NCBI RefSeq assembly: GCF_002075285.3
Contig: NZ_CP021983.2
Location: forward strand, 4,860,001 to 4,892,000
Length of the DNA: 32,000 nucleotides
DNA from: Halomicronema hongdechloris C2206
GTDB taxonomy: Bacteria > Cyanobacteriota > Cyanobacteriia > Phormidesmidales > Phormidesmidaceae
Direction: 5' to 3'
Part shown: positions 25,750 through 29,674 of the stretch, piece by piece
Numbering within the stretch: position 1 is the stretch's first letter
How the letters are laid out: each line of letters starts with the position of its first letter
Program-made: the position numbers and the translations under genes
Notes under the pieces: model-generated
Seen by the model: only the letters and a program-made list of their open reading frames with translations
Told to the model about the DNA's origin: nothing
The model's database searches: none

Positions 25750-27213
25750 CTACATATAAAAACGGTAGTGGAATTCTAGAGGTTCGTCCTTGCCGATGTA
25801 CTTCAATATACTGCCTACTTGCCTTGCTGCCCGAATAGTAATGGGCTCTCCGCGATCGAACTGCGTGTTGTTCCAGTTCATTTTTGTTAAAGCTAAAATT
25901 TCCTGCGCTAAATTCTTCTGTGTATCCTCTGTACTCTCACAACGAAATTTGAGGGGACGTGGAACGTACATACCTGGATAGGTGGAAAAAAAGTCGATGC
26001 TACCGCGCGTGTAGAGAACTCCGGTTTGCTCATCCAGGCTCAGTAAGGTTCCCCTTAGGGGCGGATACTTACCATTCCGGAATAGACGTGTGCCTGAACG
26101 GTTATCAAAGCTAATAAATTCTGCTGTATCAATGCCGTGTTTGTCTAGCGCGTCTTGAAAACCATCGAACTCTTCTGGAATAAAGCGTGAGGTTTTGTGC
26201 AAAACGATGCGTGCGGGTAAGTTTCGATGCTCCCGTCGATATAGAGATAAAACATTAGCAAGTAATTCTGCTGCATCAGTGGCAGGAAGATAAGGCTGGC
26301 GGTCATCTTTTGTTACTTCTGCTTGTCCGCCTCTTAAAATGACCCCTTCTCCACGCTCATTAAAGATTTGAGCAGTACTGGTTAATAACTTTGAACGGTC
26401 TAAAGTCCTATAGAAACTAATCCCGACATAGCAAGTTGCTAAATCTTGCGCACTTCGAACTAAGCGCCATGGCGTCCCTAATGCCTTGTAATAAAGCGCC
26501 GTATAAAGATTCCAAGCACGTGTTGCCTCATCTTGAAGCGATTTATTTTTCCTTCGATTTGATTTTTTAGGCTTTTTGGCTAAGTTGATCGTTGAAGGTA
26601 GAACAACCTGAGTTGGTTTGCGCAAGGCCATTGCTTTTGCCTTAAATAAATCGTGAAAATCTAAGCTGATGGCTTTTGATTTTTCAAATCTTTGCGATTT
26701 TGTGGATGCTTGAGACGCATAATCTGCTTCATCTTCATCCATGCGCTCAAGCAAGGATTGCGGCAAAGCACAAATCAAAACATCTGGGCCTGTTTTTTCA
26801 TCGATATATTTCAATTCTTCGATAAGCGCATCAACGGTTTCTTTAATTAATAAATTTCGATCTGTGTTCTCCAGAAGTTTATCGATCGCTTTGTTTGAGA
26901 TGATGGCGTTTCTTCGTGAATTTACACTTATATTTGTTGGTAAACTTTCTATTTCTCCAAAGCCTGGAAATTCTGGAAAAAGATAAGGCTGTTTGCTTTT
27001 CTTAGCTTCTATACCTTGCTTGCACTTATCTAGCCAGGACTCTAATCCTTCTACTGTCTCTGATGATCCAACAACGCCTAGCTTTATCTCGCTCGGCGCT
27101 GAGGCGGTACCATAATCCAAAGGTTTGTGGTGCATCATACCAAAACGAATGTCGATATGCCGACCACCATTACCAAACTCTAGTTCTGGCTCCGATAGAA
27201 AGTCAATTTTCAT
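25750..27213 (-). CDS. Short prokaryotic Argonaute (MID-PIWI only, catalytically inactive PIWI)
   Basis: 487 aa. PIWI C-terminus EILALTKMNWNNTQFDRGEPITIRAARQVGSILKYIGKDEPLEFHYRFYM. YVGISFY and IVLHKTSRF lie where active Argonautes carry catalytic Asp residues. MID-pocket-like HDLFKAKAMALRKPTQVV. No N or PAZ domains can fit in this length. Confidence 0.88.
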   Translation of the reverse strand: MKIDFLSEPELEFGNGGRHIDIRFGMMHHKPLDYGTASAPSEIKLGVVGSSETVEGLESWLDKCKQGIEAKKSKQPYLFPEFPGFGEIESLPTNISVNSRRNAIISNKAIDKLLENTDRNLLIKETVDALIEELKYIDEKTGPDVLICALPQSLLERMDEDEADYASQASTKSQRFEKSKAISLDFHDLFKAKAMALRKPTQVVLPSTINLAKKPKKSNRRKNKSLQDEATRAWNLYTALYYKALGTPWRLVRSAQDLATCYVGISFYRTLDRSKLLTSTAQIFNERGEGVILRGGQAEVTKDDRQPYLPATDAAELLANVLSLYRREHRNLPARIVLHKTSRFIPEEFDGFQDALDKHGIDTAEFISFDNRSGTRLFRNGKYPPLRGTLLSLDEQTGVLYTRGSIDFFSTYPGMYVPRPLKFRCESTEDTQKNLAQEILALTKMNWNNTQFDRGEPITIRAARQVGSILKYIGKDEPLEFHYRFYM

Positions 27214-28557
27214 TGTCTAATTGAAATAGTGGTAATTCATTCAGGTCATCGGATAATAAAGCAGACGACTCAGCGTCTTCGCTGCCAATCCACATTGCGT
27301 CATCGATGCCAACATTAATATTAAATTTTTCGAGCTTGCTGAAAGTTAAAAATGGATACGGCAATTGAAATAGTTCCCCCTGTGGTGATGTAGATAAATA
27401 CTCAACCCACATTATTAGTTGACCAAACACTGCAGAATTCTTCTCAAGCCGCTTAATGCCTGATAAATGCTCTTGGTCGTACTTGTCTCTAGTACACCCA
27501 TCTCTGGTAAAAAAATAAGTTGGTGTTATTTCTAAAAACCAGCTAGAGTCAATCCGTAAAAACTGCCCTATAAATGCAGAGTGGCGATAGTAAGCTATTT
27601 CTTCTGAATTTTTCTTTTTATAGGCAAGAAAAACATCGCGGTGCGTTTTCTTTGCAAGACTTTGATAATAATATGTATGGACAGATAAATTTGGTGTCGC
27701 TTTAAAGTAGTAACATTCTTTCTTTCGATCAAATAGCAAATCGCCCTTTACTTTTTCACGGAGCGTATTGTTCAGCAACCAGACAAATTGATGATGTCGC
27801 TCCCGCATACTCGAAAGTGACCATTCTTCTACGTCATGTTCCTCAACAGTCCCTGCATCACAAACTGTAGACCAAGGCTGATGACGGAGATTATGGAAAC
27901 TCAAGATAAAATTACCGTCAAGAATCCATTCTCGCCCTAAGGTTTGCCCAATTTTTAAGAGATCCGTATAAGCCCTAGACTCATCCTCGGTCATTGTGTA
28001 TCCGGTGTAGAGTTTCTCTCCAAATTGAGAGACTTTAAGGAGATTTGAGTAAAGCTCTTCTTTCTTAGGGCGAGGTGCTAAGTATAGGCCAGAGCCGCGC
28101 GGCACAGCGAGCTCAATTAAGGCATTTCGAACACGACCATCAAAACGATTGGCTTGCTTATCAAATAATGCTTTGCGCGTTTTCCTCCGTTCGGAATGCC
28201 TAAAGTGCTCTTTGACTGAAATCCAATAGGCTTCTCTTTCTGGCACGCGGACAATAATCAAAATTACAGGTGCATTACCCTGGAGCCAATACTCTAAGTC
28301 TCGTTGTCCACATTGGTATTCGAATTTAGAATCGTTTTCTGATAAAAGTTTTTTTGCTCTGTGGCTTTTCCCTGAACTTGAATTATTGAGTTTGTGACTT
28401 CTTCGGTTACATCATCGCGAATTTCAATAAACCCATCAATGCCTGCTTCTACACCCCCTGTTGGATACCAGAGAAAACCCATCTCAAGGACAATTTCTTC
28501 GATGACATTAATGCCTTTTTGACCAGTGATGTCTCGTTTCCCGATTTTCTTAGGCAC
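27203..28557 (-). CDS. DUF4365 (DREN, PD-(D/E)xK nuclease)-APAZ effector partner of the short pAgo. The two halves sit in different frames, joined at an A7 run
   Basis: N-terminal GINVIEEIVLEMGFLWYPTGGVEAGIDGFIEIRDD...IIQVQGKATEQK (DUF4365 pattern). After a -1 shift at 28349-28355 it reads KLLSENDSKFEYQCGQRDLEYWLQGNAPVILIIVRVPEREAYWISVKEHF, then an APAZ-like ~340 aa (ELYSNLLKV, YYRHSAF, WFLEITPTYFFTRDG). The stop overlaps the pAgo start by 11 nt. The GTG start at 28557 is a guess; the ORF track extends to TTG at 28638. Confidence 0.8.
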
Positions 28558-28622
28558 GATTAATGCTGACGGCTCTCCTGACTTTGTGCTGATAAGGCAA
28601 ACGGCTACCAATTTAAGGCGGG

Positions 28623-28655
28623 ACAGCCTACAAGACAAGGGTTACAGCCTACAAG
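28623..28655. promoter_or_regulatory. 12-bp direct repeat ACAGCCTACAAG x2 with 21-bp period, upstream of the DREN-APAZ gene (candidate operator or promoter element)
   Basis: Read directly at 28623-28634 and 28644-28655. Confidence 0.3.
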
Positions 28656-29674
28656 GGACTTAGCCGATTTGAACTCAATTTTGTCCCGTTTTATGTGGAT
28701 AGCCGGCAAACTTATAGTGGGCAGCCAATAGGTTTCAGCCGTTTCCCACAAGGCATTTTGTAGCCTCTTACACCATTTCAACCTCAGACCCGGAAGAGCC
28801 ATGCTGACAGATCTCTTTGGTTAGTGCAAACGAACCAAGTATAGCTGAACTATTTAATCGGTACCACTTACAGATACATTGGTGCGCAATCTTGCCCTAA
28901 CTGTCCCGTTAAGAACCATAAATTAGACAGTTAGGACTGTCAGATCACTAACGACCAGAATTTTTCCGGCTCTTTGGACTAAACTATGCTGACTGCATTA
29001 CTAAAAACCTCGAATCCCTTATGTAGAAATACTTGTAGGTCTTAGAAACTCAAACAGAGTCACGAATGCCGCAAAATCCTGCGCCGTAAGGATTCTAGCG
29101 ATTTTCAGGGCTGTATTGCATACCCTAGCCGGAAGACCCGTTTTTCCTCTGCTACAGCGTTTCCCGCTCTAGTGAGGTGCGAATACGGGGCTGTAATCCT
29201 TGTCTGTCAGGATTGGGTGTACCTCATCAGCCTTGGAAGCGCTGTATAACTGGGCCAAGATGCTAGTCGTTCATGTCGCTCAACCCGATTACGTCCGCTT
29301 CACCCAAATAGTTGCGCAGCGGCAACTCCTCTCAATCGCTGAGCCACGAACTGATTGTCTATTTCAGAATCCCCTTCCCTAAAGAGCCTCAAGGGAGCAG
29401 TACGATGTCACAAGAAATAATTCATAACCGATGCTAAAACGGATAAGGATATTGCCGCGAAGCTAAAGCGTTGGTGAACAACCCCGGAACATTAAGAATT
29501 GTGAGTGGTCTACGATGGTAATGATGTCAGTATGAGCGAGAGTTTAGAGAGCACCCGGCATCGTTCCCTTAGTGAGGTCGAAGCGTTGACCGCAGTTGTG
29601 GATCAATAAGCCACGATGACAGTACCGGAATTTCTCGCTAAAGTGCCCCATCAAACTGCTTAAAATTACCTCAA

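Follow-up and report, generated by a model that had tools for sequence, protein, structure and literature searches.

A SPARDA-type Argonaute operon in the cyanobacterium Halomicronema hongdechloris C2206 with a frame-interrupted DREN–APAZ effector gene

Does a prokaryotic defence locus in which the diagnostic motifs are all in place also encode the proteins that it needs? The question is raised by a window of 32,000 nucleotides (nt), the whole stretch of DNA analysed here, which an exact-sequence look-up places in the 5,577,845-bp (base-pair) chromosome of Halomicronema hongdechloris C2206, bearing out the cyanobacterial host named in the initial annotation of the window. Its minus strand carries a gene for an effector composed of a DREN (DUF4365) nuclease domain and an APAZ domain, followed by a gene for a short prokaryotic Argonaute (pAgo). 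The initial annotation presented the pair as a complete SPARDA-type immune operon and as the clearest functional system in the window. We find that the family assignment is right, and that neither the completeness nor the claim to function holds for the sequence as given, in which the effector is frameshifted. As recorded, DREN–APAZ is not one uninterrupted polypeptide, and it becomes one only after the insertion of a single A.

The effector gene runs from a conserved GTG start to a TGA stop (27203–28557, minus strand), as delimited by three-frame translation, tblastn and domain matches. Although it had been described as one protein over this interval, the listing of open reading frames (ORFs) divides it between two frames, 28294–28638 (114 amino acids, aa) and 27203–28261 (352 aa), and tblastn likewise splits the frame-repaired effector into 28557–28351 and 28372–27206. 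The closest homologues are single ORFs of 451–453 aa with the same VPKKIGKRDITGQKG beginning from GTG. Translation from GTG 28557 yields a 5′ part of 87 aa as encoded (28294–28557, minus strand), in which 69–70 native residues are followed by 17–18 out-of-frame residues and a TAG stop (28294–28296).

Three-frame translation and tblastn place the frame change at a run of seven adenines (A7; 28349–28355, minus strand; T7 on the plus strand). It is a −1 disruption that lies directly after the catalytic QxK motif, following codon 69–70 of the effector. Replacing A7 by A8 restores the ORF (EQKKLLSENDSKFEY), and the one extra A gives a 451-aa effector (...VQGKATEQKKLLSENDSKFEYQCGQRDLEYWLQGNAPVILIIV...). 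The 12 residues that A8 places between KAT and (F/L)EY match the spacing in the homologues, and A7 or A5 do not fit.

A protein search for the effector returned 768 relatives, and the family comparison was made on 105 full-length homologues. All 105 are single ORFs of 435–465 aa, to every one of which the repaired effector aligns without gaps; identity to the best homologue is no more than 69%. In the DNA of the closest loci, L001 (Leptolyngbya ULC186bin1), L003 (Nostoc NMS2) and L012, the site contains no A run, and exactly 12 codons separate KAT from (F/L)EY. The frameshift is not a family feature. Apart from the junction, the repaired effector departs from the family at only three of the 92 columns with at least 95% conservation, namely G63, H118 and V385, and matches it at the other 89. 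G63 lies between the catalytic Q and K, a position occupied by S in 101 of the 105 relatives. We found no second lesion in the effector or in the pAgo over 2.8 kb. With one lesion and no sign of damage elsewhere, either the base was lost very recently or the homopolymer was miscalled.

The identity of the repaired effector is clear. Pfam DUF4365 matches it at 1.1e-23 over 138 of 139 model positions, PADLOC Aga_REase-PNTD1-PNTD2 at 4.5e-153, and the DREN–APAZ chains 9qbq_A, 9qbp_A and 9jsb_D of the PDB at E values of 3e-59 to 6e-56, gapless across the junction. The 3′ frame (27203–28261, minus strand), a 352-aa ORF read from an internal TTG, comprises the end of the DREN fold, a linker, the whole APAZ domain (~27206–28066) and an acidic C-terminal tail, as delimited by the ORF listing and PDB alignments; it aligns to the APAZ domain of 9qbl_A (7.7e-28) and to full-length chains. 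A DUF4365 and an APAZ match, on which the earlier family call depended, are thus both found, the former on the frame-repaired protein. We detected no TIR or SIR2 domain in the effector; Pfam gives DUF4365 only, and PADLOC SIR2-APAZ matches are restricted to the APAZ part (residues 195–445).

The motifs EAGIDGFIEI...VQGKAT, quoted previously as the nuclease head, are present and are borne by the 114-aa ORF. The acidic and lysine residues that had been taken by eye to be retained are indeed kept: alignment to XauSPARDA assigns the PD-(D/E)xK residues to E37 (28447–28449), D41 (28435–28437), Q62 (28372–28374) and K64 (28366–28368), all on the minus strand and each conserved in at least 95% of the 105 homologues. 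In XauSPARDA, mutation E37A reduces nuclease activity, whereas D41A, Q62A and K64A abolish it, and the acidic C-terminal tail of the effector is autoinhibitory (bioRxiv 10.1101/2025.04.08.647717). The counterpart residues in NbaSPARDA are D41, Q60 and K62 (10.1101/2023.06.08.544223; PMC12205087).

The pAgo gene (25750–27213, minus strand; ASC73671.1 / WP_080811274.1) is an intact ORF of 487 aa that encodes MID and PIWI domains only, and all motifs quoted for it before were located: GISFY (264–268), HKTSRF (339–344), LTKMNWNN (442–449), RAARQVG (461–467) and the C-terminal YRFYM (483–487). PADLOC pAgo_I matches residues 1–487 over the whole model (1.3e-177), and the SPARDA Argonautes 9qbp_B, 9qbl_B and 9jsb_A of the PDB align end to end at E values of 1e-105 to 1e-107, residues 5–482 aligning to XauAgo residues 7–477. 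The Argonautes of SPARTA and SPARSA systems match much more weakly (E ~1e-35 to 1e-38). The initial annotation had tied its Argonaute call to a Piwi/MID match. In Pfam no Piwi or MID family matches the pAgo at E ≤ 0.01, so that, taken formally, this part of the claim fails, while the call itself stands on the overwhelming PADLOC and PDB matches. We therefore rejected the missing Pfam match as evidence against an Argonaute and regard it as a sensitivity limit of the Pfam model. NCBIfam has no match for the pAgo or for its DREN–APAZ partner. The pAgo agrees with its family at 130 of 131 columns conserved in at least 95% of 113 homologues. Taken together, the Pfam, PADLOC and PDB matches (E 1e-56 to 1e-177 for the latter two) lie well outside what chance would produce and sustain the assignment to the SPARDA type, DUF4365(DREN)–APAZ with a short pAgo.

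The MID domain comprises approximately residues 1–255 (26449–27213, minus strand), the limit being set by analogy with NbaAgo, whose MID domain is formed by residues 1–250 (PMC12774872). In the HMMER alignment, the 5′-end pocket has H187 and K191 at the positions of XauAgo R181 and K185 and probably represents the 'HK' variant of the 'HK/RK' motif. Q227 and N235 match XauAgo Q222 and N230, and D185 stands at the position of N179. In XauAgo, N179 contacts and reads guide base 1 (A1), and Q222 and N230 contact guide base 2 (bioRxiv 10.1101/2025.04.08.647717). K191, Q227 and N235 are invariant in the 113 homologues, and the 5′-end binding pocket is therefore predicted to be kept. The HK-type pocket and D185 are the majority states within the cyanobacterial clade of the pAgo.

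The PIWI domain (approximately residues 256–487; 25753–26448, minus strand) is predicted to be catalytically inactive from motif comparison with XauAgo and EaeAgo. The first, third and fourth positions of the tetrad are held by S266 (GISFY), T341 (HKTS) and R464 (RAARQ). The equivalent columns of the 113 homologues contain S in 98 and G in 12, T in 74 and S in 39, and R in 92, respectively. This agrees with the earlier reading of YVGISFY and IVLHKTSRF as sites where catalytic Asp residues are replaced, S266 and T341 falling on the first and third positions. When the domain was compared by hhalign with the PIWI domain of human AGO2, HKTS was placed on YRDG in a consistent register, but this alignment is not significant (E 0.17). 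SPARDA Argonautes are reported to have no catalytic tetrad (PMC12205087, 10.1101/2023.06.08.544223). With three tetrad positions placed and no DEDX tetrad among them, the pAgo is most likely non-slicing.

The two genes overlap by 11 nt (ATGAAAATTGA; 27203–27213, minus strand, by sequence inspection). The pAgo ATG lies at 27211–27213 and the effector TGA at 27203–27205, 11 nt inside the pAgo ORF, exactly as had been noted. The overlap ATGAA(A/G)ATTGA recurs in the three related cyanobacterial loci L001, L003 and L012, and more distant loci have 4-nt ATGA overlaps. The effector is likewise immediately upstream of the pAgo in L001, L003, L012 and L013. The 11-nt overlap couples translation of the effector and the pAgo. 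In L012 (at 6302–8059), a metagenome-assembled locus (GCA_964351855.1), the SPARDA pair adjoins a DarT/Macro-domain toxin–antitoxin pair that is DarTG-like, the sort of surroundings expected in a defence island.

Among characterised systems, XauSPARDA and EaeSPARDA (PDB 9qbl, 9qbq, 9qcc, 9qbp; bioRxiv 10.1101/2025.04.08.647717) have the same two-gene architecture. Their Argonautes align to the pAgo end to end (E 1e-107 and 1e-106), and the repaired DREN–APAZ aligns over ~430 residues (E 3e-59 and 5e-56). As in XauSPARDA, the DREN active site consists of E37, D41, Q62 and K64, down to the numbering, and the two systems share the Q and N that contact guide base 2 as well as an acidic tail at the C-terminus of the effector. 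XauAgo and EaeAgo share the KTS motif in PIWI, but have G in place of S266. Compared with XauSPARDA, the H. hongdechloris locus differs in its frameshifted effector, in H187 for R181 and D185 for N179, and in G63 between the catalytic Q and K; the 5′-base preference may differ as a result of D185. The hosts of XauSPARDA and EaeSPARDA are proteobacterial, in contrast to the cyanobacterial host considered here.

NbaSPARDA from Novosphingopyxis baekryungensis (PDB 9jsb; Prostova et al., preprint 10.1101/2023.06.08.544223; PMC12205087; PMC12774872) belongs to the same family (pAgo, E 3.6e-105; DREN–APAZ, E 5.8e-56). The mechanism expected to be common to both involves an RNA guide, a DNA target, filaments and a collateral nuclease. 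The H. hongdechloris locus is divergent from NbaSPARDA, and its frameshift bars the heterodimer as recorded. SPARTA (TIR-APAZ) and SPARSA (SIR2-APAZ) systems (e.g., PDB 8fex, 8ifk, 8qlo) likewise pair a short inactive pAgo with an APAZ-fused effector and become active on oligomerisation. The effector in these systems is an NADase, whereas that of H. hongdechloris is of the PD-(D/E)xK DNase type and has no TIR or SIR2 domain.

Judging from the Xau, Eae and Nba systems, DREN–APAZ and the Argonaute of an intact copy would form a heterodimer, the MID pocket of which would load a 5′-phosphorylated small RNA guide. By homology, pairing with complementary invader DNA would then rearrange sensor loops and displace the acidic C-terminal tail of DREN–APAZ, and the complexes would polymerise into filaments. 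DREN tetramers would constitute the active, indiscriminate Mg/Mn-dependent DNase and cause cell death or arrest. Such a copy would be expected to give abortive infection or plasmid exclusion. In the recorded copy, A7 for A8 shifts the frame after QxK and ends the product at 87 aa, and the effector is lost. The 87-aa product retains the active-site residues, but the remainder of the DREN fold is cut off, as is all of APAZ, the domain that tethers the nuclease to the Argonaute. As recorded, the locus cannot assemble the DREN–APAZ:Ago heterodimer or work as SPARDA. The frameshift would also uncouple pAgo translation from the upstream ORF. Every sequence-level feature of SPARDA membership is present except an uninterrupted DREN–APAZ ORF. 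The operon had been titled 'complete' even though resequencing of the A7 junction was asked for in the same place; the effector frame is broken as recorded.

How did this copy come by its A7? Our preferred reading is of a horizontally acquired SPARDA-type operon, in which the gene for a short, non-slicing MID–PIWI Argonaute lies behind that for the DREN(DUF4365)–APAZ effector. The composition profile shows a low-GC island that carries the operon (25000–30000, a feature without strand), in which the GC content is 0.40–0.48 compared with ~0.55 elsewhere in the window, and this low GC content suggests horizontal acquisition. On one flank of the operon, a second short pAgo is reduced to its C-terminal stump beside an ISL3 element, and on the other lies a split transposase gene of the IS66 family. 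We consider the A7 to be real and to have arisen very recently, by a slippage mutation that inactivated a costly abortive-infection system on this decaying mobile island, an explanation to which we give even confidence. It is favoured because the island is decaying, housekeeping genes of the window are intact, ~41x Solexa data were used in the assembly and other cyanobacterial copies are damaged. That the lesion is recent follows from the conserved columns of the effector and pAgo, nearly all of which are kept.

Six damaged cyanobacterial copies of the SPARDA clade were found, four with effector lesions and two with truncated pAgos, some of which may be contig or assembly artefacts. P0033, from a Nostoc lichen cyanobiont (DB3992), begins with the DREN region read in the +1 frame and returns to the proper frame at the same Q–K codons, as judged at the protein level. 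P0027 is without its first 57 residues, the DREN N-terminus; the N-terminus of the effector is replaced in P0107, and P0096 is a DREN–APAZ/pAgo fusion that arose by deletion. The truncated pAgos are P0162, which has no residues 1–138, and P0196, which diverges after residue 353. These copies hint that toxic SPARDA effectors are often inactivated, lost or silenced in cyanobacteria.

Several observations weigh against a genuine inactivating mutation. The hybrid assembly leans on 454 and PacBio RS, platforms that are prone to an A8-to-A7 error, and a sequencing artefact accounts equally well for 2.8 kb without any further lesion. The heptamer A_AAA_AAC stands in the correct −1 register, so that some full-length effector could still arise. 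A second sequence of the junction from this strain was sought by exact-product look-up without result, no copy in species-representative genomes is more than 69% identical, and a metagenome scan for A6–A9 variants of the junction found none.

The first two of these points lead to the strongest competing explanation, namely that the true genome has A8, that the 451-aa ORF is real and that the operon is complete and functional. Both 454 and PacBio RS undercall long A runs. The recorded genome is a MIRA hybrid of 454 (17x), PacBio RS (14x) and 36-bp Solexa (41.5x) reads, the first two from homopolymer-prone platforms, in the case of PacBio RS an early one (PMC6416890). An undercall would explain why exactly one added A suffices to align the effector with every homologue at the right length and without gaps, and why neither gene shows any other defect. 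The homopolymers of the window are weakly suggestive in the same direction: none is longer than seven, and nine runs are of exactly seven bases. However, ~41x Solexa entered the hybrid consensus, and the authors of the genome state that some frameshifts were verified (PMC6416890). The genes at 1–18 kb of the window are all full length, including recA, coaX, bioB-like, pucC-like, NUDIX and AhpC genes, and some of the intact housekeeping genes contain 7-base runs; the assembly is thus not generally full of frameshifts. Moreover, the A7 at the frame junction of the ISL3 element recurs in at least four genomic copies and in related elements elsewhere and is thus real and not a miscall. We regard a sequencing or assembly artefact as a serious possibility, but as clearly less probable than a genuine mutation.

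A further explanation is that the A7 is real and serves as a recoding or contingency site, the effector being expressed by −1 ribosomal frameshifting, by transcriptional slippage or through slipped-strand switching between ON (A8) and OFF (A7). In the zero frame, positions 28354–28348 read caA_AAA_AAC, a canonical X_XXY_YYZ heptamer in register, and a −1 shift on it leads into the correct downstream frame (LLSENDSKFEY). Programmed −1 frameshifts are known to occur at A_AAA_AAC in IS1 and at A_AAA_AAG in dnaX and IS3-family elements. The heptamer at the effector frame junction is identical to that of IS1 and in the correct register; unlike the IS1, dnaX and IS3-family sites, however, it has no downstream stimulator and is not shared by homologues. 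For the 94 nt that follow the site, the folding energy is −15.8 kcal/mol (z = −0.39 compared with shuffled sequences), and no significant stimulatory structure is indicated. The A run is absent from L001, L003 and L012, and the uniformly uninterrupted ORFs of the 105 homologues speak against recoding as well. An A7 run is short for efficient transcriptional slippage, and we know of no precedent for programmed frameshift sites in defence effectors.

Some findings do accord with such a site. The 380 codons beyond the site are preserved in full, as is the pAgo. A conserved A_AAA_AAG frameshift seems to operate in the ISL3 element nearby, and slippage expression may thus occur in this organism. 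In a second lineage, P0033 is frameshifted at the homologous Q–K A-run, again at the protein level, but this frameshift looks like an independent lesion. On balance, leaky or switchable expression is unlikely. Slightly less likely still is the specific proposal that the A7/A8 tract is a reversible (slipped-strand) or leaky (−1 slippage giving trace nuclease) switch for a toxic effector, with P0033 as a second example.

It is very improbable that the locus is an older pseudogene or domesticated remnant in which the Argonaute, alone or with an APAZ-only product of the 352-aa ORF, is kept for a nuclease-free function. In its favour, 130 of the 131 conserved positions of the pAgo are unchanged, and partners consisting of APAZ only are known from other groups of short pAgos (Ryazansky et al. 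2018). Against it, neither the active-site residues of DREN nor the unused 5′ segment has decayed further, the internal TTG (28261) lies inside the DREN fold and is unsupported as a start, and no homologue shows an APAZ-only architecture as a conserved form.

With a recent inactivating mutation as the preferred explanation, the H. hongdechloris locus is a divergent, uncharacterised SPARDA member of the cyanobacterial clade that is ordinary apart from the frameshift. It is conceptually nothing new. As had been acknowledged from the outset, it is not a new class, SPARDA being characterised biochemically and structurally, and the pAgos of H. hongdechloris C2206 were already counted in the 2018 pAgo census (Ryazansky et al. 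2018). The locus nevertheless holds a lesson for annotation: by its motifs it is a textbook-looking defence locus, yet through one homopolymer base it is, as recorded, without its effector. Before a system is counted as 'complete', the integrity of its ORFs should be checked and its sequence verified at the level of reads. If expressed, the repaired pair would be a SPARDA of cyanobacterial origin whose MID pocket is of the HK type and whose contact to guide base 1, D185, is a different one, which could be of minor interest for guide preference and diagnostics.

The dead second pAgo reported to adjoin the operon is indeed present as a C-terminal remnant at ~22640–22760 and 24062–24253 on the plus strand, interrupted by the ISL3 insertion. 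What is left is roughly the last 100 aa, ending in ...EYSFYM* and 47% identical to the intact pAgo over its residues 424–487. The first ~385 codons are missing, and a minus-strand NACHT gene starts at 22442.

The ISL3-family transposase (22800–24034, minus strand) is encoded in overlapping frames of 151 aa (zinc ribbon and helix-turn-helix) and 260 aa (DDE), joined at gaA_AAA_AAG (23595–23601), a classical −1 slippery heptamer in register. An identical 260-aa product is annotated at at least four loci of the H. hongdechloris genome, and related ISL3 elements from other samples (P0125, P0134, 275 aa) show the same overlapping frame through A7 (...GGVCQRKKVCIDL...). This junction, common to at least four copies and to related elements, suggests that the transposase uses a conserved programmed frameshift. 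To our knowledge, a programmed frameshift is not the usual ISL3 arrangement. We considered the A7 of this element as proof of systematic assembly error and rejected it, the split product being intrinsic to the insertion sequence and the housekeeping genes being intact. A plasmid search with the ISL3 region gave no match.

Scans of the island for Rfam families, tRNAs and repeats found nothing relevant, and promoter and terminator scans gave sites no more numerous than in shuffled sequence. Directly 3′ of the pAgo gene (24279–25134, minus strand) lie two ORFs of 170 aa and 157 aa in different frames with a 131-nt overlap. Neither matches Pfam, PADLOC or NCBIfam, and together they could be a single frameshifted gene. 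The NACHT gene (18501–22442, minus strand) encodes a 1313-aa protein in which a NACHT NTPase domain and a match to HEAT repeats are accompanied by a long hydrophobic region at the C-terminus. The protein weakly resembles the NACHT antiphage protein EruA (7e-11, far under the curated cut-off) and may be an NLR-like defence gene adjoining the Argonaute island.

On the other side of the operon, the IS66-family transposase gene (DUF6444, zf-IS66, DDE_Tnp_IS66; 30324–31858, plus strand) is split into ORFs of 209 aa and 314 aa with a junction near 30895–30915. By eye, the two frames could be joined by one extra C in gCCCt (C3 to C4), and the gene may be another decayed or frameshifted element.

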